Below the pieces are notes generated by a model that ran no database searches, was not told the DNA's origin, and saw only the letters and a list, made by a program, of their open reading frames with translations. Shown one piece after another: positions 16-63,906 of a stretch of 64,000 nucleotides of DNA; positions within the stretch are counted from its first letter, which is position 1, and each line of letters begins with the position of its first letter. The DNA comes from Gekko japonicus. Taxonomy: Eukaryota. A program made the position numbers and the translations under genes. The stretch lies in assembly GCF_001447785.1 (NCBI RefSeq), contig NW_015176464.1:1-64000 (forward strand), given 5' to 3'.

Positions 16-88
16 GGTGGCTCGCCGTGTTAAGGCACCACCTATAGAAATCATGAGGTTAATTTGATAGCGGTTCGAATCCCATGTA
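16..88 (+). other. tRNA-like Pol III element (tRNA pseudogene or tRNA-derived SINE head)
   Basis: A-box-like TGGCTCGCCGTGTTAAGG (18-35), B-box GGTTCGAATCC (72-82), followed directly by T-runs (90-100) resembling a Pol III terminator; acceptor stem does not pair cleanly. Confidence 0.4.
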
Positions 89-143
89 GTTTTTCTTTTT
101 GGGTAATGGTTCTATTTTTCTTTTTTTGGGCTTGTTTTATTTT

Positions 144-156
144 TCTATTTTTGTAC
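144..156 (-). terminator. snRNA 3' box-like element (GTACAAAAATAGA)
   Basis: Resembles the GTTTN1-4AANARNAGA consensus (imperfect 5' half); lies 9 nt after the terminal stem-loop. Confidence 0.55.
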
Positions 157-165
157 AATAAAGAT

Positions 166-509
166 AGGGTTTAAGAACCCTGAGGTAGCAGCATGGAACG
201 ATCGAACCGAGAGTACAAGACACACCCACTGCCTTGCCTTGTAAAAAGCAGCTTTCATCAGTGCATCCCTATATGTAGATTTATTTAAGCTACCGGGATG
301 CGTGATGAGCCAGCATGCATAAGGCGCCGTGTGAGGGCAAGCCTTTACAGCAAATACTTTGGTGCATCCTTGTAAGCGGGATGCAATGTGAAGGCAGTGA
401 GGGGTTCGATGGACAGTTCCATCTAGACTAGGTGTGCTAGCCTTCCTTTAGACTCTAAAGGAAGAATACCATAGTCTGGCCCACTCAGAGACCCGAAGGC
501 CTCAAGTTT
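166..509 (-). ncRNA. Putative orphan Pol II snRNA-type structured RNA (~344 nt)
   Basis: Minus-strand start TTC|AAACUUGAGG 63 nt after the PSE; 5' cUUCGg hairpin; many nested stems; terminal hairpin 166-181 then a 3' box-like motif 9 nt downstream. Confidence 0.65.
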
Positions 510-553
510 GAAACCTCAGCCACCCGATCTAGTCTTCCTTATTTTTCCTTTTG

Positions 554-572
554 ATTTCTATGTAAAGGTGAC
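554..572 (-). promoter_or_regulatory. Proximal sequence element (PSE) GTCACCTTTACATAGAAAT
   Basis: Close to the vertebrate SNAPc-binding PSE consensus; no TATA downstream (Pol II type); -63 from a C|A start. Confidence 0.65.
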
Positions 573-697: not shown

Positions 698-730
698 GTG
701 CCCAGCATGCTTTGAGAAATCTATTTGCAT
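698..730. promoter_or_regulatory. Distal sequence element 1: SPH/ZNF143 site (698-716) plus octamer ATTTGCAT (723-730)
   Basis: GTGCCCAGCATGCTTTGAG next to a perfect octamer, -189 to -221 from the inferred start at 509. Confidence 0.65.
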
Positions 731-883: not shown

Positions 884-990
884 GGGGGTCTTATTGATGA
901 AAAACCCCTTGGTTAAAAGAGGTACGATACTTATATCGTTCCCTCCGAGGCTCTATGACCTCAGTTTAAAAATAGCCAAGGCTAATGTGA
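884..990 (-). ncRNA. Possible second snRNA-type small RNA (~105 nt; 5' end uncertain)
   Basis: Terminal hairpin 885-908 (G-U pair only on minus), 3' box-like GTGTGAACAATAGA (861-874) 10 nt downstream, two internal hairpins, second DSE ~200 nt upstream; no convincing minus-strand PSE. Confidence 0.35.
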
Positions 991-1181
991 ACTGCACATC
1001 GAACCCATCACGGCCGTGCACAGAGCATGTCTCGCACCCCGGGTTCGAGCTGCAGATTACATTGGACCTTCATGGACTCTTCCTCAACAGAGAGGGAGTT
1101 CCTATGATGATGCCCTTCCGCATGAAGAGAATCATTCTTCAGAATTGCTTTTGCGCTCATGGGGAACAGATTAGGGTAGAG

Positions 1182-1224
1182 CTCCCATGATGCTTTGGAT
1201 TCAAAGGGGGGTGATTATGCAAAT
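1182..1224. promoter_or_regulatory. Distal sequence element 2: SPH-like site (1182-1199) plus octamer ATGCAAAT (1217-1224)
   Basis: CTCCCATGATGCTTTGGA plus a perfect octamer, same order as DSE1. Confidence 0.55.
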
Positions 1225-1281
1225 AGCCCAGCGAGCTATTCCGGAAACTACCGAAGGAGCTTTCGTCAATTTTCGAGACTA

Positions 1282-1644
1282 ATGCTTGTGTTTTCGTTTA
1301 AGCTCGGAGCTTTCCGACGGACTGCCAGAACGCCGATTGCTCTGAATCGGCCAAGCTCGGGTCTCAGGCCCCGACGACTGTTTCAGTCATCCATATTACG
1401 TTCAAGACGACCCGCGGATGTGGTGGTAGAGATAGAAACCCCCAAGCCGCGTCCGAAAGTGCTTCTTTGCTTCATGTTAATGTTCATATGTTTGAGTATT
1501 TTACTTTTGTGTGGAATAGTTATTCAAATTTTACATTTTGTTGATCTTGGTGCAATTACTCGGGATCGTGTTCTACAATGGATCCTGGTTGTAAATAAAC
1601 GTTTACACAACTATCTTGTTGCTCCTGTGGGAGCTACATCTTGA
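1282..1644 (+). CDS. Hypothetical 120-aa basic single-pass membrane protein (or terminal exon from acceptor at 1302)
   Basis: In-frame ATG at 1282; Arg/Ser/Pro-rich N-terminus, hydrophobic VLLCFMLMFICLSILLLCGIVIQIL; AATAAA ~40 and ~70 nt after the stop; CTAAT...pyrimidines...AG acceptor at 1279-1302. Confidence 0.35.
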   Translation: MLVFSFKLGAFRRTARTPIALNRPSSGLRPRRLFQSSILRSRRPADVVVEIETPKPRPKVLLCFMLMFICLSILLLCGIVIQILHFVDLGAITRDRVLQWILVVNKRLHNYLVAPVGATS

Positions 1645-1870
1645 GCTCCAGTGCCAGTATTCAGTTATAATTTCTACCTCGGTTGAATAAAGTTATCTTT
1701 TGGATTTATTTTTGAAATAAAAGTTTATATTGTATTAAAACAGTATATATATATATATTGAATACATCGTTGGTGAAGAAAATTTTGAAGTCTGAATCAT
1801 CTTTGTATACATATTTTTAATGCACCACAATTTTATTACGGATATATATATATATTTACCTTAAATGTTC

Positions 1871-2470
1871 NNNNNNNNNNNNNNNNNNNNNNNNNNNNNN
1901 NNNNNNNNNNNNNNNNNNNNNNNNNNNNNNNNNNNNNNNNNNNNNNNNNNNNNNNNNNNNNNNNNNNNNNNNNNNNNNNNNNNNNNNNNNNNNNNNNNNN
2001 NNNNNNNNNNNNNNNNNNNNNNNNNNNNNNNNNNNNNNNNNNNNNNNNNNNNNNNNNNNNNNNNNNNNNNNNNNNNNNNNNNNNNNNNNNNNNNNNNNNN
2101 NNNNNNNNNNNNNNNNNNNNNNNNNNNNNNNNNNNNNNNNNNNNNNNNNNNNNNNNNNNNNNNNNNNNNNNNNNNNNNNNNNNNNNNNNNNNNNNNNNNN
2201 NNNNNNNNNNNNNNNNNNNNNNNNNNNNNNNNNNNNNNNNNNNNNNNNNNNNNNNNNNNNNNNNNNNNNNNNNNNNNNNNNNNNNNNNNNNNNNNNNNNN
2301 NNNNNNNNNNNNNNNNNNNNNNNNNNNNNNNNNNNNNNNNNNNNNNNNNNNNNNNNNNNNNNNNNNNNNNNNNNNNNNNNNNNNNNNNNNNNNNNNNNNN
2401 NNNNNNNNNNNNNNNNNNNNNNNNNNNNNNNNNNNNNNNNNNNNNNNNNNNNNNNNNNNNNNNNNNNNNN
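1871..2470. other. Assembly gap (others at 6492-6524, 12429-13183, 16726-17042)
   Basis: Runs of N. Confidence 1.
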
Positions 2471-3262
2471 GCACAGTCGAGTCCGACTCTTCGCGACCCC
2501 ATGGACAATCTCCCACCAGGCTCTCCTGTCTTCCGCCGTCCTCCGAAGTTGACTCAATTTCATGTTCGTTGCATCGATGACACTGTCTAACCATCTCATC
2601 CTTTGCCGTCCCCGTCTTCTTTGACCTTCAATCTTTCCCAGCATCAGGGTCTTTTCCAGTGAGTGCTCCCTTCTCATTTGGTGGCCAAAGTATTTGAGCT
2701 TCAGTTTCATTATCTGGCCTTCCAGGGAACAGTCAGGGTTGATTTCTTTGAGGATTGACTGATTTGTTCTTCTTGCAGTCCAAGGGACTCTCAAGAGTCT
2801 TCTCCAGCACCATAGTTCAAAAGAATCTATTCTTCGGCGCTCGGCCTTCCTTATAGTCCAGCTCTCGCAGCCATACATGACTACTGGGAATACCATTGCT
2901 TTGACCATGCGGACTTTTGTTGGCAGGGTGATGTCTCTACTTTTTATCATGCTGTTTAGGTTTGCCATCGCTTTCCTCCCAAGGAGCAGGTGTCTTTTAA
3001 TTTCATGGCTGCTGTCACAGTCTGCGGTGATCTGGGATCCCAGGAACGTGAAGTCTGTCACTACTTCCACGACTTCCCCTTCTATTTGCCAAGGAGTGAT
3101 GGGGCCGGATGCCATGATCTTAGTTTTTTTGATGTTGAGCTTCAAGCCCACTTTTGCGCTCTCCTCTTTTACTCTGAGCAAGAGGCTCTTTAGATCCTCT
3201 TCACTTTCAGCCATTAGAGTGGTATCATCTGCATATCTGAGGTTGTTGATCTTTTCCCCAGC
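2471..3262 (-). mobile_element. RTE-BovB LINE, 5'-truncated 3' fragment with open RT C-terminus
   Basis: ORF AESEEDLKSLLLRVKEESAKVGLKLNIKKTKIM...VKAMVFPVVMYGCESWT...HGVAKSRTRL is typical BovB. Confidence 0.95.
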
Positions 3263-3874
3263 AATCCCACCTTACAATCCCCAGCACCACCTTACTAGTT
3301 AGTTAATAGTAATATTAAATTGACACAATAGCCAATCACGGACTTGTTGGGAAGGGCTCTATGATAATGAGGATAAGTCGTTCCCCTCCCTCCAGAAGAA
3401 AAGTTTAAAAACAGAGAACACGGAACTATCAGCAGCCTTTTTCTCTTACTGAAACTTTCTTACATTAGCTCTAGTCTGCAGCTAGGGTTAAGTTTCTCGT
3501 GTCTCCAGCAGGTCTAGAGTCACGTGTCTCTCCTCTCTTTTCATTCATTTTTACCCCCTTGCCACTGCCCATTGCTGGAAGCTTTAGGAGCAGAACGGAG
3601 CATCTGAGGTAAATATATTCTACAAGAAACAACGTTAGTTCCTAATTGTGCTATAATAATTCTATCTGGTTTTCTTAGTTCTTGAATGTGTGTATGGTTT
3701 TACTATTATTATTCCCTGTTTGAATGATCAATACTCAGTAAAGAATTGTTGTTTTACTTTAAGTTGTCGTCTCTTGATTAAAGCGTCATTGCACAGCGGC
3801 ACCCTTTGTATACATTGACCGTAACCCAGTTATTAATAAGCTAATTATCTCTCATAAAGAGTGATTAGGCTAAC
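3263..3874 (+). mobile_element. Probable LTR fragment
   Basis: Ends GGCTAACA like the solo LTR at 21801-22755; CCAAT and AGTAAA motifs; 5' end not identifiable. Confidence 0.35.
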
Positions 3875-4144
3875 AGTATGATGATATACATTCTACTCTT
3901 TTAGACCCAAATTTATTTAACATGATAGGCTGCCTGGATACTTTGAAGGTGTGCCATCTTCTGAATGATTCATCACCTGAAATAACTGAAAAAGTAGCCT
4001 TATTTCTAAGTTTGGTAATTAAGGATCAATTGTGTAATGTCTAGATGCATATGATTGACTCATTTTCCCTTGTTACCTCTTTATCTGTTTATTGTTTCTA
4101 CCTGTAATTTGATATATGCCAATATCTGTGAGTGAGTGAATGTT

Positions 4145-11631: not shown

Positions 11632-13262
11632 TTTTTTTTTTAAATCCCCGGAGGGATATTTTTTTATTTTGCAAATACTACAAAAACTACAAAGAAATAT
11701 TAGGGAAGGGACTACAACTAAGGATAAAGGAAAGCAAACCACACTAAACTAAAACCCCAAGAGGAGGTCTTTTCACTGTTAGTAAAAATGTTAGTATAAT
11801 TAGTTTTAGTATCACAATATACGTGTAGAGTTCTTGCTTATAACAATTCGTTATTTATATGTTATTTTGTTATGAGAGAAGTCTGATCATCTTCTTAGTC
11901 ATCACTTCAAAAGGCCATTTTCCAAGTCCTTCTGCCTTTACTTCGGCTTTCTGTCTCTAAAATCGTATACCACTCTGGCAGGTCCAGCACCCTTTTCTGC
12001 TGCAGAATCCTCATCCGTTCCTGAGGTAGCAGAGTCACTAGACTTCGTTTCTTCCTCTTTGGACTCTTTGTCTGTCCCCAGCTGACATCTCAAAAATTCT
12101 TTAGCTTTAAGAGTGGAGTCTATCTTCTCTCTTCTATTGTTGATCTTAAAGATGACACCCTCCAGAACCACCCACCTGTACGATATCCCATTAGTTTGAA
12201 GAAAAGAAATTAAGTCCTTATAATTTTTCCTCTTTTGTCTAATTTCAAATGGAATGTCCTTTAAGGTTTTGATGGTTACATTTCCCATTTTCAGTGGAGT
12301 TGCTGAAGTTGCTTTTAAAATGGCATCTCTGGTTTGTCTTCTTAAAAACCTAACCACTATTTCTCCAGGTAGGTTAATTTTTTTAACGTAATTGGAGTAA
12401 TCCCTGTAGACTGACTCCATTTGAAATTNNNNNNNNNNNNNNNNNNNNNNNNNNNNNNNNNNNNNNNNNNNNNNNNNNNNNNNNNNNNNNNNNNNNNNNN
12501 NNNNNNNNNNNNNNNNNNNNNNNNNNNNNNNNNNNNNNNNNNNNNNNNNNNNNNNNNNNNNNNNNNNNNNNNNNNNNNNNNNNNNNNNNNNNNNNNNNNN
12601 NNNNNNNNNNNNNNNNNNNNNNNNNNNNNNNNNNNNNNNNNNNNNNNNNNNNNNNNNNNNNNNNNNNNNNNNNNNNNNNNNNNNNNNNNNNNNNNNNNNN
12701 NNNNNNNNNNNNNNNNNNNNNNNNNNNNNNNNNNNNNNNNNNNNNNNNNNNNNNNNNNNNNNNNNNNNNNNNNNNNNNNNNNNNNNNNNNNNNNNNNNNN
12801 NNNNNNNNNNNNNNNNNNNNNNNNNNNNNNNNNNNNNNNNNNNNNNNNNNNNNNNNNNNNNNNNNNNNNNNNNNNNNNNNNNNNNNNNNNNNNNNNNNNN
12901 NNNNNNNNNNNNNNNNNNNNNNNNNNNNNNNNNNNNNNNNNNNNNNNNNNNNNNNNNNNNNNNNNNNNNNNNNNNNNNNNNNNNNNNNNNNNNNNNNNNN
13001 NNNNNNNNNNNNNNNNNNNNNNNNNNNNNNNNNNNNNNNNNNNNNNNNNNNNNNNNNNNNNNNNNNNNNNNNNNNNNNNNNNNNNNNNNNNNNNNNNNNN
13101 NNNNNNNNNNNNNNNNNNNNNNNNNNNNNNNNNNNNNNNNNNNNNNNNNNNNNNNNNNNNNNNNNNNNNNNNNNNNNNNNNNNAGGCTACTGCCGTGTGA
13201 GCCGCCCTGCCCTGTCTTGGGAAGAGCTTCCGCCATCGCTGTTCCATAGACCAGAAGTTCCA
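11632..13262 (-). mobile_element. L1-clade ORF1-only retroelement (HAL1-like)
   Basis: ORF1 C-terminus (PGEIVVRFLRRQTRDAILKA...KDIPFEIRQKRK...GISYRWVV) stops at 11938, ~300-nt 3'UTR, poly(A) at 11632-11641, 16-bp TSD AAAGCTTCATTA(G/A)TCT; middle is a gap. Confidence 0.75.
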
Positions 13263-14504
13263 AAAGCTTCATTAATCTTAAAGGTGCCACTGGACTCAAA
13301 CTTTGTTCTGTCCTATAATGAGATATCCGTTCTTTTCTCCACTTGTCAGTAGAGTTCATCTAGGAGCTTTCCTTTAGTTAAAAGTATTTTAGCGTGCCAG
13401 AAATTTTTGCACATTCATTCTGCCCCTTTAGAATGCCTTGAAAATAGTTTTCTCCCTCTCACATTAACAATAATTTCATGTTATCCAATGAACTTGATTG
13501 GCAGTAGAATGAGGACAGACAAATGAAAAGTATTTCTTCACATGACAAACAATTTAACTGCTAAAAGATGTGATGCAGGTTTTCATCTTAGTTGACTCCA
13601 GAAAGGGATGAGACAAATAAATGGAGAAGACATCTTCCAGCATCTACTAGCTATGATGACTAACTGAAACCTCCATCCTCAGAGGTAATACACCACTGGA
13701 TGCCAGTTATAGTGACAGGCAGCAGGCAAGGAATATTGCCTTCATGCTTGCCAAATGAATCTATCTGGTCACTTTGAGAAACTGGTTATTAGACTAGATG
13801 CTTGGTCTGTTCCAGCAGGTAATCCTTATGTCATATTCTTAAACCTTTTCTGATGTCACAGTAAAATGTGCCTTCAGTTTTAGTTCAGAAAAAAGTACAC
13901 CACATCTATACAAAGTTTGGGAAGATTTCTCCAGGCTTTCATCTTAATGTAACAACATCTCATCTTCCCCTCCAACAGCTCAAGAGCTAAGAAGCATGAA
14001 ATGCCAGTGAGACGTAGGGTCATCACCCCATCATTTTCCCAACCCAACTCACACATCAAAGAGTTTGTAAAGAAAATGACTTTGTATTGCTTTGCAGTAG
14101 CTATTATCTCATCCCCTGGTTTGTGTGTGTGGATTGTCCCCCCCCCCCCAACAAGGCCTCCCCATTTCATTGCAAATGTATACCATTTGCTGCCAGAGGA
14201 CAGGTAATTGAAACCAAAAGAAAAACAATGAAAAGAGGATGAGGATGAATCACTACAATCTATATTTTCTGATAGGAAAAAACAAAAATAAAATGTATTT
14301 TCACAGGAAGATGATAAAGATTTTATTTAAAATTGCTCCCCACCCTTTTCATTAAGCTTCTTATTGTGTATCTTTTAGGAAAAGCTTGCAGCTCCCAAAG
14401 AAACAAACAAAAATAAATGTCCCCCTTTGCAAAGGCAGCAGCTGAATGTGACTAGACACATAGGGGTGAAATTATTGAATAAAGACACATGTGTTCCACC
14501 TATG

Positions 14505-25824: not shown

Positions 25825-28800
25825 ACCTAAATCTTAACTTAGTCTGCCTAATAAACCATATCCTTATGCCTAGTATGCCTAAAAGGAACCTAAACTAAAT
25901 ATGAAATGTTCCTATTAATCTACAATCTAATTAACCTTTGCATTCACTATTCCTAAATCTTATTCAAAGGTGTTAAGTAAATATATACATCAAGGGGTAG
26001 AATGGGACTCAAATGTAGGATGAGATGTTTTACAGAGGGGTACAGGCTGCAAAGCATTAATCAACAGCAAAATCAGCTGCAAGGCATTAATCAACAGCAA
26101 ATGGCCAGGGCACAGCAGGAAGATTATAAAGTAGCCATGTCTGCCTTTCAGCTAGATAGGACCAAATTACTTTCTGTTAACTGTGCCTACTTTGGAATTC
26201 AATATGTGCAGATAGGTATCAATCACAGGTTGTACTTTCACCTCAGCCTCCCCCGCTTGGCAACACCAGTCAGGGAACACTTAGTCTGGCACCAAGGATG
26301 GTGAGGGCGAGGAGCCGTCCGGGAAATATAACTCTTTACATCAGTTTTTGGTAACATCACCCACTTTTGTGCTATTATGAACTGGCAGTCTTCCACAAGA
26401 TAAATTTTTGCCTCTTCTTGCTTCCTCAGTGAACATAGTATCTAAAGCTAATAACTTGGATTCATTTACTGGATTAATACATTTCTGCATTCTTTATATT
26501 CTTTTTCACACAGATTATCAAAACAGAAAATATCTGTTGGTTAGTTTACATCTTATATTAAAATCTTCAGGATTACAGGAAACCATGTCTTGAAACAACT
26601 ATTTTCACAATGACTATTTGTACATTCCTGATGCATATGGTGTATGCCAGTCAATAAATCTGGGAGAATGGTGTGTTTTAGTGCAGAATTCTAGACTTTT
26701 TGAAAATAAATTATTGGGGGTGATCCATAATCTGCTTCATTTAAAGCACTCAGTAAATTAATTATGCTGATGTTATCTTGACAGAAAAGATAATAGACAG
26801 TGCTCACTTCTGTCTGCACAAAGGTATTAAAGGTTCAATTTCTACTAAAATTTCTTCTTCTAAAAGTAATACCTACCTTGAGTAACTCCATCCTGGATTG
26901 CTAACCTTCTATCAGTAGATCACAAACTCAGGGAAACAGATAAACTGTTTTCTTTTAGGGACAGTAAGGAGAATTCTCTTCACTGAAAAAGCAGCCCCTG
27001 TATAAGGTGATAGTACATGTGTCAGTGGTTAAATTTTGAGCTAATTGAAATAAAATCCCCATCAGGTGTATCTTGTTTATAGCTAGAATCCAGGAAGGGT
27101 CAATCACAGGAAATTACTAGTATGCTTGATATTCAAGGGAATGCCAGTAAACTACGTACATACCCTCAGAGGACACTGTATACAGACACACACCTGGTTG
27201 TTGGGGTGGCAGAAAAGGGCAAGTAATGCAATTAAAGCAAATTGCTAAAGAAAGATTTATGGATGTTTGTTATTATATTTTTGCAAATGCACAGAATGTG
27301 GACACAAATAGTCTTGAAAAATCAAAATGTCAGAAAACCAGTATCATAATGGTTAGAGTGCTGGATTGTAACCTGGAAGATCCAGTTTCAGATCTCCACT
27401 CTGCCATAAAGCTTGATGTGTGACTTTAACCCTGTCACATGATCTTACCCTAATCTACTTGGACAGGATTGCGGTGAAGATAAAATGAGGAAGGAGTAAG
27501 GCTGCCATATTTCCAAGTTACCTAGCGATTGCTTTACATCTCTTCTTGTTTACTACTACAGAATGTCACAGAAAACATACCTTTACCTGATTCTTTGTCC
27601 ATGCCAGGATTTGCTCAGGCATACATGGAAGACTGAAAAATGGAACAAGGTATTTTGCCCCAAGACCTCTAGTTTTATGGTTCCAGCAGTACATGGCTCT
27701 GGAATTAATGTACAGTAGACCTTCACATGTAGAAGGTTCTTGATTGCTTTCCTCCTAAGTCTTGAACTTTTGGTAGTTAAAAGCTAAAGTCATGCATACA
27801 CCTCAGTCTGTAGTCTTTACCCTTATTAAAAACAGGAAGTCCCCATAGGCAGCTGAAACAAGGGAGGGATGCTCTTCTGTGTGCATACCTACCTCCTCTT
27901 GGTTTTGATGAAACAGAACAGTATGTATTAATAATGAATCTAAGAGTTTCTCTGCACAATTAAAAACTTTACTATGCCATTCAAGATAGGGTTGCCAGCT
28001 GTGGGTGGGGAACTACCTGGAGATTTTGGAGGTGAAGCCTGGGAAGGGTGGGGTTTGGGGAGGGTCCAATGCCTTAGAGTCCACCCTCCAAAGCAGCCAT
28101 TTTCTCCAGGGTAACTGATCTCTGTTGTTTGGAGATAAGTTGTGACAGCAGGAGATCTCCAGGCCCCACCTGGAGGTTGGCAGCCCTAACTCAACTAGTC
28201 ATCTGACCTAGGGTTGCCAACTGATTGGATAAAAGATATCTCGTCCCTTTAATATAGGCTTCGTGGTATGTTATTTAGGAGGTGATATAATTTACCTCCA
28301 TGCCATGTTTCCTCTATTAAAGGGACAGGACATTTTTCTTGAGCCCTGAACCTCAAGTGTTGTCACAGATTTCTTGCCGAAAACTGGCTTCACCCCCCCC
28401 CCAACTCTGAATAACCTAAATATGTTTTTAATTAGCATATTCAATCAAAGCATATGCTGAAGAGCAGTATATGGAAGATCTTCAGATAATGAATACTACT
28501 CTTCACAGTACACCTCTAAAAGCAAGACAGCCCTATTCTGCAGAAAAGTTAGTCTGTGTAATTATAAACGTATTTTTCTATCCCTTTCCCCTAACCTACT
28601 GTATTGGCTCTGAAGGGCTTAGAATGAATCCCAAGCCACTTTCTCCCCCCAAACACTGAATATCTGTAATTCAAGGCAACAACCTAGAGAAGCCAAGCAG
28701 CTAGATCCACAAATAAAGCAGGGCTTTTGTGTCTTGCCAACTTATGGCAATCCTGTAGGTTTTTCAAGGCAAGAGATTTCAGAGGTGGCTTGCCATTACC

Positions 28801-29986
28801 TTCCTCTGTATAACAACCTGGGATTTCCTTGGTGGTCCTCCATCCAACTGCTAACCAGGGGCCAATCCTGCTTAGCTTTTGAGATCAGATGAGATTGGGC
28901 TAGCCTGTGGTGTTACATTGCCAACTGTCTTCAGAGAAGCAACTTGGAGATTTAAAGTTCTATGTCTGATTGAAATCCACAGCCTGCCCATAGCTCTATG
29001 CCTGCACTAACAAGAGTATTTTTGTAAACATGTATTTATTTTGAGATAAGTTGGAAAAAATGTTATCAAATACATTTTCTAGCTGTAACTTGACATGGTA
29101 TGCATGTGAAGTTGTCAGCCAGCAGGCGAGTCACTATCTGTTGCTGGGTATTATATATTTAAATATTATAGTAACAATAATTCCCACCCAGTACAGGTAA
29201 CACCATGAGACAACAGTACAACGCTAGCCTGTAATTATTGTTCTTTGCTTATTTCAGGATCAAGTAACAGCATCAATCCAGTTACAGAAACATAAAGAAT
29301 CATTTCAAGCTTCTAAAAGATTTTCTTTGCTAATCTTCTCCCTAGTAAGTGGTGGGGGGCACTGAAATGTATTGGAGTGACACTTGAAATCTGTAGCTAC
29401 ATTTGTCATTCTGCCAAGGACATGGAGAGAACCTGCCTGAACACCAGCGGGAAAACAATTTGCTGAAGCAGCTGAAGCAGTAAGTTGCAACTCATTGAAA
29501 ACCATCCCCAGCACCCTGCTACATGATCAACAGCTATTGAAGTGGGACTTGAAATATGGATTTGATGGTACAAAACAGAAGATAGATAACACACACTTTG
29601 GACTGACCTCCATTTGGTGGAATGTGATAACCAACATCTGAAGAGTTATCTGCATCTCTCAGGTGAAATCAACTGAAACATGATAGCCCCAGACGTTAGT
29701 GTTCAAAGATACTACTTGGATTCCAGAATCCAGAGTGTGAAATGTATAACTTGTTCCACTTGTACTTTGACTAAACTAAGGAAGTTTTTTCCCCACCCAC
29801 ATTGGCTCTCAGCTCCTAGGTCTGATTCTCATTGAGGTGGGTAAAGGTTTATATGATGAAATGTGCTTCAGGATAAAACAAATCTTTTGTTCAGAGAAAA
29901 CTAGATGGCAGAATGGTTTTAGACTAGTCTTCTCCATGACATGCTAGTTTTCTTCTATGTGTGTGCACTGTTTCTATGGGGACCAC

Positions 29987-30297
29987 CAGGGCTGGTGCTA
30001 CCATTAGGCCAACCTAGGCAGCCACCTAGGGTGCTGACCTCAGAAGAGTGCAGAACTGACAGTCTGCATTACTGTGCAGGAACCCCACCACCAGGCGCCA
30101 AGGAGAGCTTAAAATACAATTCATGTATAAGAGCTGCTGCAAACAATTCATGATTTTTAAAAGCAACTAAAAAGTCCAGTTTTCATTTGAAGGTAGTCAA
30201 AACAGAGGGGGGGGGGAGTTTGAAAATTGGTGGGCGCATGGGGGAGCACCAGAAGGTAGCCTCGCCTAGTGTGCAAAAAAACCTGACACCAGCCCTG
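29987..30297. mobile_element. hAT MITE (duplicated at ~36083-36403)
   Basis: TIR CAGGGCTGGTG / CACCAGCCCTG, 8-bp TSD GGGACCAC. Confidence 0.8.
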
Positions 30298-32941
30298 GGG
30301 ACCACTCAGTCATACAATTCCCCCCCCATTCCTTCACTCTGACAGCCCTGGCAGATTTACCATCTCTCACTTAAAAGAGAGAATAGGAGGTTTTATACCA
30401 CTCAGTGGTTTTACCTTGCATTTACTCAAAGCAGGCCTGTCACCTCTGTTTCTCCAGCTCTACGCTCAGCTCCAGGGCTTTCCATACTATTGACAGCTGA
30501 GACATGCATCGCACACTTAAAATGTTTCCTTTGAGGTTTCTAATACTAATCAGGCAAGAATTGAGGTTGCCAGCCTCCAGGAAGGGTCTGGAGTTCTCCA
30601 GGAGTTACTTCTGATTTCCAGACTAAAGAGATCAGTTCTTTTGGAAGAAATGGCCGTTTCTGAGGGCAGACTCTATGGCAACGCATTCCCACTGGGCTCC
30701 CTCTCCTCCCAGACACTGTTTCCAAATCTCCAGGAATTTCCCAGGCCGAGTTGGCAACCCTATGCTCCTCAGCACCTTAATATTCCTGTTTTAATCTTAT
30801 TTTATTGTTATTTGGGGGGTGAGTATTTTGTGTGTGGGTGTGTGTTCCTGGAATTCATGGTTGACTTCTGGTGACCCCTAGTGGGGCATGGACATTTCAA
30901 AGCGGTGGCTGACTATTGCATGCCTCTGCATCCCAGCTCTGGTATTCCTTGGAGGTCTCCCTTCCAAGGACTTGCCAGGGTCTGCCATGCTTAGCTTCCA
31001 AGATCTGACGAGATCAGGCTATCCAGGTCAGGGCTATTGTTCTTATTTTTGTAAAACATGTTGGGGGTTATTTGAATTAAAAGGGGTGAACAAAAGTATT
31101 TTAAAAGTGTTTAAAGAAACCACCAATTTTAATTAATGTTAAAATAGTAACTTTTCTGACTATCCTTCTTCGTTGTACACAGGCAAACCCAGAGGTGTAA
31201 CAGAGACACAACAGGCAATCTCCTTTAAGGAAATTAATTCTACTGCACTCAGAGTGGCTGAATAATCCAAAATCAAAACAGAACTGCCCACCCCAGAGTA
31301 ATCTCACTGGAAAGATACGAGGTCATCACAGGAAGCCTCCTCTGTGGGTGGCTAATTTGGGTTCCTAAGAACCTTTCATTATTCATTTATTTATCATAGG
31401 TTGCACTCTAGCTGTTCCTTCTCTTATGGTGTGGTAGTTTCCTACACAGAAGCCACCCTAATTTTTACAAAATCTCCATGATAAGATATCATAGCCAAGA
31501 AAATGTTCACGAGAAATAAGTGAATGTTAAGACATGCTGACAATGATGATGCTTTACACTGTATGAATGCTGTCTCCTTTTACTCTCTCAATTTGTGTTT
31601 CAACTAGACCACAAACCAGAGTATCAGCAATCCAAACTCTTTCACTAAAAGTTGGAACTGATTGTTGAGGCTGGGATCTTGGTGCAGGGAATTGCTAGCA
31701 TTTTGTGCCACAAGATGGCAGCCTTTCCTTTCTAATTTCTTTGAAATATTTTCCCCTATTTATAGTTGAGAGGGGGTAAGACAAGTAAACCCTAACCTGG
31801 ATGGCCCAGGTTAGCCCAATCTCACCACAACTTGGGAGCTAGTTAGTAGTGGGATAGGAGACCACCAAGGAAGTCCAATGTCACCATGCAGAGGAAGGCA
31901 ATAGCAAACCTCCTCTGTTAGTCCCTTGCCTTGAAAACCCTACAGGGTCACCATAAGTCAGCTGATTGTGACAACACTTGACACACAGAGAAGCTGAGTA
32001 CAGGGGGTTTGGGTGGTTTTTTTACAAGATTTCCTATACCCTACTAATATGTTTTAAATTTACAAACTAATAGCACATACAGAATCTCTTTAGCAGCCAA
32101 AGAGTATCAGAGAAAAAGCGTTTTCTGTTGTTGAACTCTATTTGTGGGATTCTCTTCTGAGAGACCAGTGCTCGCTCATTCTTAAATGTGGTTGAAATCT
32201 GTCCTGCTCATTTGTGCTTTTGTAACTGATTTTTCATATTTCACCCCTACAACAACAGTTTTCATATGCATTTTGGTTTATTTTATGCTATAGACTCCTG
32301 GGCAATTTTATCTGTTCCTTGAAAACCATGATTTGGCTGTTATGCATATTCTGAATCCGGCCAGGTTAGATAACTGCAGTGCAATTTAAGTGGGGTTGCC
32401 ATTAAAAACAGTCTGGAAACTTCAGCTGGTTCAAAATGCAGAAGCCACACACTACTGTCAGGGGCAGCATACAAAGATTATATCCCCAACCCCAGATGCT
32501 AAAAGATCTGTATGCCAGCCTATGTATTATTGCCGGTGTGTGTAATGGTTAGAATGTTGGCCCAAATTCTGGAAACTCAGATTCATATCCCTACTCTGCC
32601 ACAGAAGCTTGCTGGGTGACCTTGGGCCAGCCACACATTCTCAGCCTAACCTACCTTACAGGGGTGTTGTAGGGATTAAGGTGGGGTATAAATGAAGTAA
32701 GTTAATAAAATTATTTCCAGGCAAAATTACTTGTAAGGTCCTAAACAGCCTGGGACTGGTTCTGTTGAAGAACCACCTCCTCCCATATTGTACAGCCCAC
32801 AAAGTAAGATCTACCTTCCAAGCCCTGCTCTTTGCACCTCTATCGGCAGAGGTGAGGTGGGTGGTACTTAGAAACAGGGGTTTGTCATAGGTAGTGCCTC
32901 ACCTTTGGAATCCTCTCCCTTTTGTGGTCTGCCTGGTGTCT

Positions 32942-33290
32942 AAAGGTAAAGGTAAAGGTTCCCTTGCTCGAAAGCCAGTCGAGTCCGACTCTAGGGTTGC
33001 GGTGCTCATCTCCGTTTCAAAGCCGAAGAGCCAATGCTGTCCGAAGATGTTTCCGTGGTCATGTGGCCAGCATAACTAAACACCAAGGCGCACAGAACGC
33101 TGTTACCTTCCCACTGAAGTGGTACTACCTATTTATCTACTTGCAATTTCTTGCTTTCGAACTGCTAGGTTGGCAGGAGCTGGAACTAGAGACGGGAGCT
33201 CACTCCGTCTTGCGGCACCCGGGTCTCGAACTGCTGAACTACTGACCTTCCACAGCCTGCAGTTCAGCGTCTTAACCACTTGAGCCCTAC
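32942..33290 (-). mobile_element. Sauria SINE (duplicated at ~39048-39396)
   Basis: (ACCTTT)n tail read as AAAGGTAAAGGT on +, BovB-like GTCGAGTCCGACTC 3' part, tRNA-like head. Confidence 0.8.
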
Positions 33291-36200
33291 TGTTAATAGC
33301 AGGAGACCAAAACATTTCTTTACCCAGGCTTTTAAGAGAAGTTTTATCTCATCTTTTTCAGCTGGTTGTTTTATGACCTGTGTGCTACTTTTTATTACTA
33401 TTGTTGTTTTATAACTGCTTAAATGTCAGAAAACCAGTATCATAATGGTTAGAGTGCTGGATTGTAACCTGGAAGATCCAGTTTCAGATCTCCACTCTGC
33501 CATAAAGCTTGATGTGTGACTTTAACCCTGTCACATGATCTTACCCTAATCTACTTGGACAGGATTGCGGTGAAGATAAAATGAGGAAGGAGTAAGGCTG
33601 CCATATTTCCAAGTTACCTAGCGATTGCTTTACATCTCTTCTTGTTTACTACTACAGAATGTCACAGAAAACATACCTTTACCTGATTCTTTGTCCATGC
33701 CAGGATTTGCTCAGGCATACATGGAAGACTGAAAAATGGAACAAGGTATTTTGCCCCAAGACCTCTAGTTTTATGGTTCCAGCAGTACATGGCTCTGGAA
33801 TTAATGTACAGTAGACCTTCACATGTAGAAGGTTCTTGATTGCTTTCCTCCTAAGTCTTGAACTTTTGGTAGTTAAAAGCTAAAGTCATGCATACACCTC
33901 AGTCTGTAGTCTTTACCCTTATTAAAAACAGGAAGTCCCCATAGGCAGCTGAAACAAGGGAGGGATGCTCTTCTGTGTGCATACCTACCTCCTCTTGGTT
34001 TTGATGAAACAGAACAGTATGTATTAATAATGAATCTAAGAGTTTCTCTGCACAATTAAAAACTTTACTATGCCATTCAAGATAGGGTTGCCAGCTGTGG
34101 GTGGGGAACTACCTGGAGATTTTGGAGGTGAAGCCTGGGAAGGGTGGGGTTTGGGGAGGGTCCAATGCCTTAGAGTCCACCCTCCAAAGCAGCCATTTTC
34201 TCCAGGGTAACTGATCTCTGTTGTTTGGAGATAAGTTGTGACAGCAGGAGATCTCCAGGCCCCACCTGGAGGTTGGCAGCCCTAACTCAACTAGTCATCT
34301 GACCTAGGGTTGCCAACTGATTGGATAAAAGATATCTCGTCCCTTTAATATAGGCTTCGTGGTATGTTATTTAGGAGGTGATATAATTTACCTCCATGCC
34401 ATGTTTCCTCTATTAAAGGGACAGGACATTTTTCTTGAGCCCTGAACCTCAAGTGTTGTCACAGATTTCTTGCCGAAAACTGGCTTCACCCCCCCCCCAA
34501 CTCTGAATAACCTAAATATGTTTTTAATTAGCATATTCAATCAAAGCATATGCTGAAGAGCAGTATATGGAAGATCTTCAGATAATGAATACTACTCTTC
34601 ACAGTACACCTCTAAAAGCAAGACAGCCCTATTCTGCAGAAAAGTTAGTCTGTGTAATTATAAACGTATTTTTCTATCCCTTTCCCCTAACCTACTGTAT
34701 TGGCTCTGAAGGGCTTAGAATGAATCCCAAGCCACTTTCTCCCCCCAAACACTGAATATCTGTAATTCAAGGCAACAACCTAGAGAAGCCAAGCAGCTAG
34801 ATCCACAAATAAAGCAGGGCTTTTGTGTCTTGCCAACTTATGGCAATCCTGTAGGTTTTTCAAGGCAAGAGATTTCAGAGGTGGCTTGCCATTACCTTCC
34901 TCTGTATAACAACCTGGGATTTCCTTGGTGGTCCTCCATCCAACTGCTAACCAGGGGCCAATCCTGCTTAGCTTTTGAGATCAGATGAGATTGGGCTAGC
35001 CTGTGGTGTTACATTGCCAACTGTCTTCAGAGAAGCAACTTGGAGATTTAAAGTTCTATGTCTGATTGAAATCCACAGCCTGCCCATAGCTCTATGCCTG
35101 CACTAACAAGAGTATTTTTGTAAACATGTATTTATTTTGAGATAAGTTGGAAAAAATGTTATCAAATACATTTTCTAGCTGTAACTTGACATGGTATGCA
35201 TGTGAAGTTGTCAGCCAGCAGGCGAGTCACTATCTGTTGCTGGGTATTATATATTTAAATATTATAGTAACAATAATTCCCACCCAGTACAGGTAACACC
35301 ATGAGACAACAGTACAACGCTAGCCTGTAATTATTGTTCTTTGCTTATTTCAGGATCAAGTAACAGCATCAATCCAGTTACAGAAACATAAAGAATCATT
35401 TCAAGCTTCTAAAAGATTTTCTTTGCTAATCTTCTCCCTAGTAAGTGGTGGGGGGCACTGAAATGTATTGGAGTGACACTTGAAATCTGTAGCTACATTT
35501 GTCATTCTGCCAAGGACATGGAGAGAACCTGCCTGAACACCAGCGGGAAAACAATTTGCTGAAGCAGCTGAAGCAGTAAGTTGCAACTCATTGAAAACCA
35601 TCCCCAGCACCCTGCTACATGATCAACAGCTATTGAAGTGGGACTTGAAATATGGATTTGATGGTACAAAACAGAAGATAGATAACACACACTTTGGACT
35701 GACCTCCATTTGGTGGAATGTGATAACCAACATCTGAAGAGTTATCTGCATCTCTCAGGTGAAATCAACTGAAACATGATAGCCCCAGACGTTAGTGTTC
35801 AAAGATACTACTTGGATTCCAGAATCCAGAGTGTGAAATGTATAACTTGTTCCACTTGTACTTTGACTAAACTAAGGAAGTTTTTTCCCCACCCACATTG
35901 GCTCTCAGCTCCTAGGTCTGATTCTCATTGAGGTGGGTAAAGGTTTATATGATGAAATGTGCTTCAGGATAAAACAAATCTTTTGTTCAGAGAAAACTAG
36001 ATGGCAGAATGGTTTTAGACTAGTCTTCTCCATGACATGCTAGTTTTCTTCTATGTGTGTGCACTGTTTCTATGGGGACCACCAGGGCTGGTGCTACCAT
36101 TAGGCCAACCTAGGCAGCCACCTAGGGTGCTGACCTCAGAAGAGTGCAGAACTGACAGTCTGCATTACTGTGCAGGAACCCCACCACCAGGCGCCAAGGA

Positions 36201-39200
36201 GAGCTTAAAATACAATTCATGTATAAGAGCTGCTGCAAACAATTCATGATTTTTAAAAGCAACTAAAAAGTCCAGTTTTCATTTGAAGGTAGTCAAAACA
36301 GAGGGGGGGGGGGGTTTGGGGGAGTTTGAAAATTGGTGGGCGCATGGGGGAGCACCAGAAGGTAGCCTCGCCTAGTGTGCAAAAAAACCTGACACCAGCC
36401 CTGGGGACCACTCAGTCATACAATTCCCCCCCCATTCCTTCACTCTGACAGCCCTGGCAGATTTACCATCTCTCACTTAAAAGAGAGAATAGGAGGTTTT
36501 ATACCACTCAGTGGTTTTACCTTGCATTTACTCAAAGCAGGCCTGTCACCTCTGTTTCTCCAGCTCTACGCTCAGCTCCAGGGCTTTCCATACTATTGAC
36601 AGCTGAGACATGCATCGCACACTTAAAATGTTTCCTTTGAGGTTTCTAATACTAATCAGGCAAGAATTGAGGTTGCCAGCCTCCAGGAAGGGTCTGGAGT
36701 TCTCCAGGAGTTACTTCTGATTTCCAGACTAAAGAGATCAGTTCTTTTGGAAGAAATGGCCGTTTCTGAGGGCAGACTCTATGGCAACGCATTCCCACTG
36801 GGCTCCCTCTCCTCCCAGACACTGTTTCCAAATCTCCAGGAATTTCCCAGGCCGAGTTGGCAACCCTATGCTCCTCAGCACCTTAATATTCCTGTTTTAA
36901 TCTTATTTTATTGTTATTTGGGGGGTGAGTATTTTGTGTGTGGGTGTGTGTTCCTGGAATTCATGGTTGACTTCTGGTGACCCCTAGTGGGGCATGGACA
37001 TTTCAAAGCGGTGGCTGACTATTGCATGCCTCTGCATCCCAGCTCTGGTATTCCTTGGAGGTCTCCCTTCCAAGGACTTGCCAGGGTCTGCCATGCTTAG
37101 CTTCCAAGATCTGACGAGATCAGGCTATCCAGGTCAGGGCTATTGTTCTTATTTTTGTAAAACATGTTGGGGGTTATTTGAATTAAAAGGGGTGAACAAA
37201 AGTATTTTAAAAGTGTTTAAAGAAACCACCAATTTTAATTAATGTTAAAATAGTAACTTTTCTGACTATCCTTCTTCGTTGTACACAGGCAAACCCAGAG
37301 GTGTAACAGAGACACAACAGGCAATCTCCTTTAAGGAAATTAATTCTACTGCACTCAGAGTGGCTGAATAATCCAAAATCAAAACAGAACTGCCCACCCC
37401 AGAGTAATCTCACTGGAAAGATACGAGGTCATCACAGGAAGCCTCCTCTGTGGGTGGCTAATTTGGGTTCCTAAGAACCTTTCATTATTCATTTATTTAT
37501 CATAGGTTGCACTCTAGCTGTTCCTTCTCTTATGGTGTGGTAGTTTCCTACACAGAAGCCACCCTAATTTTTACAAAATCTCCATGATAAGATATCATAG
37601 CCAAGAAAATGTTCACGAGAAATAAGTGAATGTTAAGACATGCTGACAATGATGATGCTTTACACTGTATGAATGCTGTCTCCTTTTACTCTCTCAATTT
37701 GTGTTTCAACTAGACCACAAACCAGAGTATCAGCAATCCAAACTCTTTCACTAAAAGTTGGAACTGATTGTTGAGGCTGGGATCTTGGTGCAGGGAATTG
37801 CTAGCATTTTGTGCCACAAGATGGCAGCCTTTCCTTTCTAATTTCTTTGAAATATTTTCCCCTATTTATAGTTGAGAGGGGGTAAGACAAGTAAACCCTA
37901 ACCTGGATGGCCCAGGTTAGCCCAATCTCACCACAACTTGGGAGCTAGTTAGTAGTGGGATAGGAGACCACCAAGGAAGTCCAATGTCACCATGCAGAGG
38001 AAGGCAATAGCAAACCTCCTCTGTTAGTCCCTTGCCTTGAAAACCCTACAGGGTCACCATAAGTCAGCTGATTGTGACAACACTTGACACACAGAGAAGC
38101 TGAGTACAGGGGGTTTGGGTGGTTTTTTTACAAGATTTCCTATACCCTACTAATATGTTTTAAATTTACAAACTAATAGCACATACAGAATCTCTTTAGC
38201 AGCCAAAGAGTATCAGAGAAAAAGCGTTTTCTGTTGTTGAACTCTATTTGTGGGATTCTCTTCTGAGAGACCAGTGCTCGCTCATTCTTAAATGTGGTTG
38301 AAATCTGTCCTGCTCATTTGTGCTTTTGTAACTGATTTTTCATATTTCACCCCTACAACAACAGTTTTCATATGCATTTTGGTTTATTTTATGCTATAGA
38401 CTCCTGGGCAATTTTATCTGTTCCTTGAAAACCATGATTTGGCTGTTATGCATATTCTGAATCCGGCCAGGTTAGATAACTGCAGTGCAATTTAAGTGGG
38501 GTTGCCATTAAAAACAGTCTGGAAACTTCAGCTGGTTCAAAATGCAGAAGCCACACACTACTGTCAGGGGCAGCATACAAAGATTATATCCCCAACCCCA
38601 GATGCTAAAAGATCTGTATGCCAGCCTATGTATTATTGCCGGTGTGTGTAATGGTTAGAATGTTGGCCCAAATTCTGGAAACTCAGATTCATATCCCTAC
38701 TCTGCCACAGAAGCTTGCTGGGTGACCTTGGGCCAGCCACACATTCTCAGCCTAACCTACCTTACAGGGGTGTTGTAGGGATTAAGGTGGGGTATAAATG
38801 AAGTAAGTTAATAAAATTATTTCCAGGCAAAATTACTTGTAAGGTCCTAAACAGCCTGGGACTGGTTCTGTTGAAGAACCACCTCCTCCCATATTGTACA
38901 GCCCACAAAGTAAGATCTACCTTCCAAGCCCTGCTCTTTGCACCTCTATCGGCAGAGGTGAGGTGGGTGGTACTTAGAAACAGGGGTTTGTCATAGGTAG
39001 TGCCTCACCTTTGGAATCCTCTCCCTTTTGTGGTCTGCCTGGTGTCTAAAGGTAAAGGTAAAGGTTCCCTTGCTCGAAAGCCAGTCGAGTCCGACTCTAG
39101 GGTTGCGGTGCTCATCTCCGTTTCAAAGCCGAAGAGCCAATGCTGTCCGAAGATGTTTCCGTGGTCATGTGGCCAGCATAACTAAACACCAAGGCGCACA

Positions 39201-41277
39201 GAACGCTGTTACCTTCCCACTGAAGTGGTACTACCTATTTATCTACTTGCAATTTCTTGCTTTCGAACTGCTAGGTTGGCAGGAGCTGGAACTAGAGACG
39301 GGAGCTCACTCCGTCTTGCGGCACCCGGGTCTCGAACTGCTGAACTACTGACCTTCCACAGCCTGCAGTTCAGCGTCTTAACCACTTGAGCCCTACTGTT
39401 AATAGCAGGAGACCAAAACATTTCTTTACCCAGGCTTTTAAGAGAAGTTTTATCTCATCTTTTTCAGCTGGTTGTTTTATGACCTGTGTGCTACTTTTTA
39501 TTACTATTGTTGTTTTATAACTGCTTTTAAATGCTGGTTAAGCTGATTGTGTTCCTAAGTGTGAGTTTTATCATTTTATGGCTGGTTTTTATTAATGATT
39601 TTTAAACAATTTTATACTCTTATTTGATTTTACTTTTGTTTATTTATTTAGTTAGTTAGTTTATATCCCACCTTCCCTGCCGAGGCAGACTCAGTGCGGA
39701 TTACACAGAATGTATAAAACAACTAAAACAGAGAAATTAATAAAATCACAACAACATAATTATAAAACATGACATAGTATAAAGTGCTAGTGCGGTTCGT
39801 ATCACAATGGTGGGTATTAGCAGCATCCAACGGCATACAGTCAGCTAATGTCATAGTCTGGATTATATCAGGCTTTTAGTAATGATGTTGTAGAGGAAGC
39901 CCAGAAGTTCAAATGATCATCTATTGATTATTGCTGGGATTCCAGAGGGCCTTAGGAAAGAACTTTAGGGATTTTCCAGAAATAAGCTGGCAAATTGTTA
40001 ACCACTAAGCAGAATTGTAGAAACCGGTGTTTTATATTCAATTTAATTGGCAGAAGAGCAATTTCCTAATGAAAGCAGGTGTTCCAACATCAGTAGACAT
40101 TTTAATTAGGATGGTAAGGTTCGCCACAATAATGACCTGTCATAGTAGAGATTTATGTTCAAACTCTCTGCTTCAAAGAACTAGATTCAGAAGTTCACTA
40201 TGATCTTTTAAATAGCTTTAGCTATAAGGAAGAATCAAACTAAACTCTCCTTTCAGTTTAAAATGCTTTAAATATTGTTAGTGGAAATCTTAAAGCAATC
40301 TATAAGCAATGTACCTGCCTTTTAGCAGCTTATTATTCTAAGGCAAAAAAGACTGCTTGCTTGCTTAGAGAAATAGTTATGCATTTAATGAACTGAGCTG
40401 GTGATGCCCAGTGAAAGGAATTTTATAATTGGTTAAAGAAGATGTCAAGATGATTAATTGAGTTAAGTACAATTATACTTTCTGTAAAAAGATATTTAAG
40501 CCTGAAAACCCCTTTTCCTTATGTGTTTCTAGAAGTTAAAACAAAACTTTTATATTATGTTTATAGCTGAGGATTAAGGCTATGGTATAGCAAGGGAACC
40601 ATTAAATTTACTTTTTATAGAATGTCTGTGAGAGAAGTAGCTGAATATTTACTAAGACTATATTTTTAAATAAGAAACTTTGCTTAAGACTAGCAAACTG
40701 CTAACAAGCAAAAACCTTTCTTCCCAATGGGGACTCAAAGTGGCTTACATGGGTCTCCTCCATTTTATTCTCACAATAACCTTGTGAGGTAGGTTAGGCT
40801 GTGAGACTGTGGGGCTTAAGGTCACCCAGTGAGCTTCCATGGCATGAATGTGTGTGCCAAACCTGGGTCTCCCAGACACTAGTCTGACATTACTAACTAC
40901 ACCACACTGGCATTAGTGCTCACTATTTTTATATTCATCTTTTGTTGCACGCTGGAGCACTACCTAGGTAGCAATCTCCAGTTTCTGCCTCATAGAAAGG
41001 TAAAGAAAATTATATTTTTAGTAGAAATAACCCACAAAATGATATTAAGAGTGCTGTTATACACTTATATGCATGTATCAATATAAAGAAACCACTTTTG
41101 TAACAGAACCAATAGATTTTATACTGAAAATGAACTCAGCCACTCTGTGTGTAAAAGTTCATTCAAAGGTAAAGCAAGTCTGGGAGAATGACCAAAAGCT
41201 GCATTCATCATTTTTAATGAGATGAGCACCTGCATTGTAAAGTTGAAATGCAGCCAAGTAACATCTTGTTAGTCAAA

Positions 41278-63705: not shown

Positions 63706-63906
63706 GGGGAGGGGCTGTGGCTCAGTGGGAGAGCCTCTGCTTTGCATACAGAAGGTTCCAGGTTCAGTCCCTGGCATCTCCAGTTAAAAGTATGAGACAG
63801 TAGGTGACGTAAAAAAACTCTACCTGGCAAGATGCTGCCAGTCTGACTAGGCAGTACTGACCTTGATGGACTGATAGTCTGATTCCATATAAGGCAGCTT
63901 CATATG
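63706..63906 (+). mobile_element. tRNA(Ala)-like-headed SINE
   Basis: GGGGCTGTGGCTCAGTGGGAGAGCCTCTGCTTTGCATACAGAAGGTTCCAGGTTCAGTCCCTGGCATCTCCA followed by a non-tRNA body. Confidence 0.7.

Follow-up and report, generated by a model that had tools for sequence, protein, structure and literature searches.

A predicted snRNA-type gene in gecko endogenous retroviruses carries conserved, overlapping seed matches to let-7 and miR-15/16

The window analysed here, a stretch of 64,000 nucleotides from Gekko japonicus, begins within an endogenous retrovirus that holds an antisense RNA gene behind env, and this proviral gene is undescribed. Its predicted RNA presents, directly before a terminal hairpin (180-167), a block at 194-181 in which 8-mer sites for let-7 and miR-15/16 overlap; the block is a real, conserved feature of the gene. 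As judged from the sequence, the RNA may act mainly as a decoy for host microRNAs, in the manner of the Herpesvirus saimiri U RNAs (HSURs) and with the Sm site missing; we give this reading a probability of about one half. It builds on direct observations, namely the proviral position of the gene, the geometry of its promoter and 3' box, compensatory changes in its structure, the conservation of the seed matches, the Sm site held by distant relatives and the microRNAs of the host itself. All of this evidence comes from one genome.

The proviral gene and its predicted RNA

The predicted RNA matched 22 contigs of the same genome, and the homology continues for kilobases into flanks encoding gag, protease, RT-RNase H, integrase and env, in frames that are partly open and partly broken. 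The copies show the order LTR-gag-pol-env-LTR, and the paired LTRs are 98.9, 98.6, 96.3 and 93.5% identical in the four copies examined, all of which had such a pair. The gag-pol-env flanks together with the near-identical LTR pairs indicate a young endogenous retrovirus present in many copies. Each provirus has one RNA gene, which lies antisense and outside the LTR, with env on one side and an accessory frame on the other; in the window, the end of env would fall about 145 nt to the left of position 1. The features are collected in Table 1.

Table 1. Features of the provirus and of the predicted RNA gene in the window
Feature	Position	Strand	Remarks
Predicted 344-nt non-coding RNA	166..509	-	Ends inferred from PSE/3' box geometry; no Rfam family; without Sm site
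DSE	699..730	-	Octamer 730-723 (-221) and SPH motif 718-699 (-201)
PSE-like element	553..571	-	At -62; no TATA box, as judged by eye
3' box	144..156	-	Begins 10 nt past the predicted 3' end; present in 26/26 copies inspected
Conserved 5' domain	420..509	-	UUCG-capped hairpin and second branched hairpin; 9 of the 13 pairs with two-sided changes
Middle domain	213..399	-	Hypervariable, modular; RNA length 235-381 nt among copies
miR-103/107 7mer-m8 site, AUGCUGC	188..194	-	Kept in 23/24 subfamily I/II RNAs
miR-15/16 8-mer site, UGCUGCUA	186..193	-	Overlaps the let-7 site
let-7 8-mer site, CUACCUCA	181..188	-	Pairs let-7 nt 1-11, including one G-U
Terminal hairpin	167..180	-	Pair 177-170: U-A in 13, C-G in 13 of 26 copies
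tRNA-like Pol III-type element	16..100	+	A box, B box 72-82, T run; convergent with the RNA gene, directly behind env
Accessory open frame	1180..1641	+	154 codons stop to stop; one hydrophobic stretch; homologous frames in L031, L034
3' part of the proviral 3' LTR	3283..3875	+	Homology to the LTR region of copies L030/L031

Cellular snRNA genes are laid out with a DSE at about -220, a PSE at about -55 and a 3' box about 10 nt downstream (PMC2582628, in part). The predicted gene has the same arrangement, with a DSE near -220, a TATA-less PSE-like element at -62 and a 3' box 10 nt after its end; its length of 344 nt and its promoter distances presuppose that +1 is position 509. The octamer lies at -221 to -227 in 22 of the 26 copies and, through a deletion, at -109 in two, the remaining two being not assessable. 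Ten U2 loci of the host served as a control. Eight of them are similar in their upstream regions and, where it is clearest, show a PSE-like element near -61; only one of the ten had an exact octamer within 300 nt. The 3' box of the window matches that of one host U2 at 14 of 16 letters. No Rfam family came near the cut-off for the predicted RNA, a pattern scan for the Sm consensus RAU3-6GR found it in none of the 26 RNAs, and a BLAST comparison of the RNA body with host U2 returned nothing beyond one 12-mer on the opposite strand (E 0.09). A coding role was rejected, the longest AUG frame varying from 0 to 68 codons among the copies and not being conserved, and Pol III transcription is disfavoured by internal T runs of at least four in 14 of the 26 copies. 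We regard it as highly probable that an snRNA-type gene at 509-166 is real.

Four sequencing runs were mapped to positions 1-1870 of the window, three of them raw-read RNA runs of which 3-12% each was sampled. These three RNA-seq runs, for which the library selection is not given, contributed 177, 5 and 81 reads in both directions, and as the reads are mostly only 90-95% alike to the window, they derive mostly from other copies. Read depth has two equal maxima, at 127-252 and at 883-1008, and is thus as high outside the gene as inside. At this low depth no piled read starts or ends and no discrete RNA were seen in the three runs, nor a spliced joint in the raw reads; no variant fell within 181-194 among the 40 listed of 85 variant rows, and a search of sequencing runs gave none listed as holding the predicted RNA. 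The reads show transcription of the proviral family, and a discrete RNA is neither shown nor excluded by them.

The window copy folds better than its shuffled versions (z about -4.5), with values from -1.4 to -7.6 over the 26 copies. In the alignment fold of these copies 13 of the 49 predicted pairs change on both sides, the supported stem that closes the middle domain is 410-403/201-208, and the linker 200-181 is unpaired. The alignment fold of the 5' domain reaches -39.1 on the minus strand versus -30.0 on the other; the folding energies of single copies favour neither strand (13/26), and a count of G-U against A-C, which is biased by the strand folded, was left out. An earlier note on this DNA had set the block in a single-stranded linker, between a stem 193-199/416-422 and the terminal hairpin, at the place where an Sm site normally sits. 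The position is borne out in so far as the block adjoins the terminal hairpin, as the Sm site of the relatives does, but the named stem exists only in the fold of the window copy. The openness is likewise seen in the alignment fold, whereas the minimum-energy fold of the window copy leaves the block mostly paired. In single-copy ensembles the probability that the let-7 7-mer is fully open is 0.075 in the window copy and at least 0.3 in 13 of the 26 copies; the corresponding values for the miR-15/16 7-mer are 0.009 and at least 0.3 in 6 of 24. The let-7 site ranks among the 16% most open 7-nt windows in all 26 copies.

Other parts of the provirus also deserve mention. The accessory frame is kept between subfamilies and gave no Pfam family over the cut-off. 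The A-box and B-box motifs behind env, which we take to mark a Pol III-type element, recur among the other copies scanned (A-box-like in 9/9, B-box-like in 8/9) around a variable middle, and ARAGORN calls no tRNA in seven of seven loci; the element is a possible second viral non-coding RNA. Upstream of the DSE a hairpin at 985-1062 (+) contains an inverted copy of the closing-stem motif of the RNA, 80% identical to 419-381. An element at about 880-1010, well covered by reads, is conserved even in distant proviruses (L104, L106, L108, L118 and L121) and is possibly a sense-strand export or packaging element. Among named pol records, those closest to the provirus come from birds and turtles, at 40-53%, and the proviral RT scores higher against MLV-type than against foamy structures. 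Further pol relatives, P0007 (63%) and P0008 (48%), lie on contigs of about 8 kb from public runs; the viral contigs searched returned no pol relative, and two pattern hits in them were set aside as chance, sharing nothing beyond the pattern itself. Relatives of env are proteins of squamates and turtles, likely co-opted, at about 40%; P0001-P0005 come from five squamates, and four are labelled PPARD isoforms by their sources, likely a mis-annotation of a co-opted env. Elsewhere in the window, 27325-39533 holds two tandem 6.1-kb copies that are 99.8% identical, either a recent duplication or an assembly artefact, and Rfam matches a tRNA at 63711-63782 (+, 50.6 bits). The long frames 1836-3214 and 11938-13359 are artefacts spanning N gaps.

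Conservation and relatives of the seed block

Read directly from the window, the minus strand at 194-181 is AUGCUGCUACCUCA, and the sites for let-7, miR-15/16 and miR-103/107 that the earlier note had recognised in it are confirmed there and against the microRNA hairpins of the host. Rfam hits over the cut-off in the same genome number 14 for let-7, five for the miR-15 family and three for miR-103, and 17 distinct candidate mature microRNAs from 23 loci, with ends inferred from the position of the seed in the hairpins, agree with all three seed matches. Site types and the 111 broadly conserved families were taken from PMC4532895, as far as its excerpted text goes. With 90-150 families, 0.46-0.77 occurrences of an 8-mer for any of them are expected per 344 nt, in line with the caution of the earlier note that a single site is not rare, while two overlapping 8-mers, which it had considered the notable part, would arise in such an RNA with a chance of about 0.003-0.009 (analytic estimates in a uniform-base approximation). 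This chance is modest and the pair unusual, yet not decisive for a genome-wide scan; conservation is independent evidence.

The 22 copies first aligned keep the 13-mer 193-181 exactly in 21 cases and the full 14-mer in 20. The query that found them contained the block, so two samples blind to the seeds were used. A search with the C-terminal part of env returned 74 matches, and the 30 best were retrieved; among these, both 8-mers are present in all 15 proviruses at least 69% identical in env. A DNA query that stopped 14 nt short of the block gave 20 contigs, 18 with both 8-mers, one with the miR-15/16 8-mer and a let-7 7-mer, and one with let-7 only. A search that required the motif found 26 contigs and none in a reversed control; as the motif was required, it counts as no evidence of conservation. 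It provided 24 of the 26 RNAs with flanks used for rates (in two contigs the 5' part fell in a gap or off the contig), to which two subfamily III copies were added. Parsimony changes were counted on a tree built without the block. Per site, the 24 copies show 0.29 changes in the block. The terminal hairpin and the 5' domain have 0.80 and 0.89, the 18 nt upstream of the block 1.72, the two flanks 2.4 and 4.0, and the middle domain, where the alignment is unreliable, 2.6.

In the 24 RNAs of subfamilies I and II the longest invariant run is 193-182, that is the miR-15/16 8-mer plus the let-7 seed match, the next runs being 7 and 6 nt; with subfamily III added (26 RNAs) it becomes 188-182, exactly the match to let-7 positions 2-8. 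The let-7 match 188-182 is invariant in all 26, with position 181 changed in one, and the miR-15/16 8-mer is invariant in all 24 RNAs of subfamilies I and II and absent from both of subfamily III. The 5' flanks of the copies are 43-82% identical to that of the window. The copies differ far more than the LTR pairs do, which places their divergence before integration, and selection on the block would therefore have acted during viral replication. The RNA thus has conserved seed matches to host microRNAs, as HSUR-like RNAs do. The conservation across homologues that the earlier note proposed to test is present, with an invariant run that stops at the edges of the seed matches, and the loss of seeds from a retained structure, which that note named as contrary evidence, is not what the close family shows.

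More distant proviruses present a different linker. Among the best 30 of 74 env matches, the 15 more distant loci comprise two of subfamily III, with let-7 only; one in which the let-7 match has one base changed; five that share the gene layout, with a canonical Sm site immediately preceding the terminal hairpin and 3' box, of which one has no DSE; two without downstream DNA; and five with no gene of such layout behind env. Follow-up searches added four loci with an Sm-type end and three (L147, L149, L152) with a third linker type, which have the same layout and neither an Sm site nor the tested seeds. The loci at which a canonical Sm site stands in an snRNA-type gene or in the end of one (L145, L146, L153, L154, L155, L163, L164, L165 and L168) are candidates for true Sm-class retroviral U RNAs; no Rfam match came near the cut-off for seven loci of distant relatives. 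The RNA of L169 (G000:C2951) is similar to the seed-type genes, and a single base of its let-7 match is altered; the env of this locus groups with the Sm-type viruses, and L169 is a possible recombinant or intermediate. Several isolated seed matches among these loci were discounted: the let-7 7-mers of L105 and L108 lie in the promoter, outside the RNA, that of L116 has no gene around it, and the miR-15/16 8-mer found inside the Sm-type RNA of L121 is probably chance, being absent from its four relatives inspected.

A tree was built from 33 env rows; in it the double-seed viruses group as a single clade (14 rows, 100/100), which subfamily III joins weakly (90/68), and the Sm-type viruses fall outside it on several branches; the tree has a midpoint root and one frameshifted row, covers a 180-residue piece and carries no clade test. 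Since distant proviruses hold an Sm site in the same linker, the seeds appear to replace an Sm site, the homology of the Sm-type RNA bodies to the window RNA resting on position and promoter, not on alignment. The order Sm site, then let-7, then miR-15/16 is the simplest, not a proven one. A broader scenario, which we put forward tentatively and consider somewhat improbable in its entirety, is that reptile retroviruses encode a family of snRNA-promoter U RNAs behind env, with the Sm versions ancestral, and that one lineage swapped the Sm site in place for an Argonaute dock, let-7 first and then miR-15/16/103; a nuclear Sm-class RNA would so have become a cytoplasmic decoy for several families, with RISC replacing the Sm ring.

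Proposed action and competing explanations

The pattern of conservation suggests that the seed block is under selection for microRNA binding, which we consider probable. Pairing beyond the seed, a check proposed in the earlier note, turned out not to exceed random expectation: 3' supplementary pairing at p<=0.05 occurs in none of 11 linker variants for let-7, none of 10 for miR-15/16 and 2 of 10 for miR-103. The best cases (p=0.02-0.06) are four subfamily II variants, none of them the window copy, and inspection by eye gives 7-8 additional paired bases to one host miR-15 member in five or six copies of subfamily II (p about 0.06). The extensive 3' pairing of a TDMD trigger of the HSUR1-miR-27 type was not found and this candidate was rejected; the result argues against HSUR1-type microRNA decay and for seed-only binding, by which HSUR2 binds miR-16 (PMC6763288, in part). 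The proposal of an HSUR-like decoy or adaptor accordingly survives in part. The gene is viral, its distant relatives have an Sm site and the seeds are kept, but the supplementary pairing is not above random and the linker is not fully single-stranded in the window copy.

As a decoy, the RNA would be the product of a complex squamate retrovirus with an internal antisense gene behind env, transcribed independently of the LTR. The gene would use the snRNA machinery of the host, with Oct-1 and Staf on the DSE, SNAPc on the PSE and Integrator at the 3' box, and would yield a highly structured RNA with a cap and no poly(A) tail. Sm assembly precedes cap hypermethylation and 3' trimming (PMC2582628, in part), so an RNA without an Sm site could plausibly stay m7G-capped and cytoplasmic, and without an Sm ring it would likely remain in the cytoplasm after snRNA-type export. 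Because the let-7, miR-15/16 and miR-103/107 sites overlap, one Argonaute could be bound at a time, and the linker would form a compact dock for one Argonaute loaded with any of these microRNAs. We infer such transcription, localisation, Argonaute binding and decoy effect. By seed pairing the RNA would titrate the three families without destroying them. Both let-7 and miR-15/16 restrain proliferation, and titration would ease this brake on the proliferation and survival of infected cells.

The block might instead answer to a ligand other than microRNAs on the RNA strand, a protein (Sm/Lsm variant, U2 stem-loop IV mimic) or an RNA guide, the seeds being coincidental. In Sm RNAs, linkers at such a position serve proteins as platforms, the RNA has further short invariant runs of 7 and 6 nt, a third linker type exists, and the 3' region of host U2 has a loosely similar run; we nevertheless hold this explanation unlikely, as invariance stops at the edges of the seed matches in two nested sets, the RNA body matches host U2 only in the opposite-strand 12-mer, and no conserved complement was found elsewhere in the eight proviral stretches scanned. 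A constraint on the sense strand of the viral genome is very unlikely, whether for a splice donor, for an export element or for a mimic of let-7/miR-15 excised from the viral RNA. The complement of the block does have the sequence of the let-7 and miR-15/16 5' ends, the viral genomic RNA includes the region and reads extend beyond the gene ends, and retroviral microRNA mimics exist (PMC4378190, PMC5807749, both in part). The local folds, however, are weak and inconsistent (-12 to -21 kcal/mol in eight of eight copies, where host hairpins have -29 to -50), the promoter, the 3' box and the alignment fold all speak for the minus strand, and the raw reads, at low depth, gave no spliced joint. That the match has no function and was inherited by chance in recently duplicated copies is hardly credible and largely refuted: all copies are related and a scan surfaces coincidences of 1 in 100 to 1 in 300, yet the flanks diverged to 43-82% identity while the block stayed.

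Where microRNA binding is accepted, its purpose may differ from titration. In an adaptor of the HSUR2 kind the RNA would pair with host mRNAs elsewhere, for example through its middle domain, and bring a let-7 or miR-15/16 Argonaute to repress them. Seed-only binding is HSUR2 behaviour, HSUR2 uses varied regions for its targets (PMC6763288, in part) and the middle domain varies fast; it is also mostly paired in the predicted folds and gained or lost in modules, and HSUR2 is Sm-class while the window RNA is not; we hold this proposal quite unlikely. Argonaute could also serve the RNA itself, replacing the Sm ring as stabiliser or localiser or tuning the level or fold of the RNA to the let-7/miR-15 state, with the structured domains doing the real job, for example as a decoy of dsRNA sensors. 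The site does occupy the Sm position, one dock per molecule makes a weak sponge, and miR-142-3p acts allosterically on HSURs (PMC9226524, in part). We consider this improbable as well: two or three abundant families at one site fit titration or broad sensing equally, and no sensor-binding motif was identified in the predicted RNA.

Comparison with known systems

An independent family of retroviral U RNAs would mean that the strategy of making viral RNAs from snRNA promoters evolved twice, and would suggest that let-7 and miR-15/16 restrict retroviral infection or the growth of infected cells in reptiles. The natural series of Sm site, let-7 only and let-7 plus miR-15/16/103 lets one ask what an Sm ring or Argonaute does for an RNA. 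The provirus itself shares with SnRV/Ovex1-related non-mammalian retroviruses a YVDD RT, a protease in pol and an accessory frame behind env. Its relation to this group is tentative, and the possible link to Ovex1 is our reading of PMC2717909.

The Pol III microRNAs of BLV and foamy viruses, the ALV-J microRNA, antisense HBZ and HIV ASP are parallels in that a complex retrovirus has a non-coding cassette close to its 3' end; the separate transcription of such cassettes means that the viral genome is not cut. Those examples give microRNAs or long LTR-driven antisense RNAs, whereas the window RNA combines a PSE-type Pol II promoter with microRNA target sites (PMC4378190, PMC5807749). The portions of these two reviews that were available describe snRNA-promoter viral RNAs only for Herpesvirus saimiri and its kin, and as retroviral non-coding RNAs they list Pol III or canonical microRNAs and LTR-driven antisense RNAs. 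The open-access literature, to which the search was confined, yielded no retroviral snRNA-promoter gene and no retroviral let-7 decoy. The cellular Sm-class genes U1, U2, U4 and U5 resemble the predicted gene in the DSE near -220, the TATA-less PSE and the 3' box about 10 nt downstream (PMC2582628, in part), and in a linker between two stems before a terminal hairpin; the lineage of the window differs from them in having no Sm site and no sequence or Rfam match, and in lying inside a provirus.

HSUR1 and HSUR2 of Herpesvirus saimiri are viral RNAs made from an snRNA promoter with a 3' box, and bear single-stranded seed matches to host microRNAs including miR-16 (PMC4378190, PMC6763288, both in part); the predicted RNA resembles them in promoter type, 3' box and seed matches. 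The gene described here is that of a retrovirus, not of a gamma-herpesvirus. Its RNA is longer (235-381 nt), has an Sm site in 0 of 26 copies and no Rfam similarity, carries let-7 in place of miR-27 and miR-142-3p matches, with overlapping, mutually exclusive sites at the 3' end, and has none of the HSUR1-type 3' pairing for microRNA decay. The predicted RNA would thus be HSUR-like in its way of working and is not a member of the HSUR family, from which it is set apart by the missing Sm site, the lack of homology and the different class of virus.
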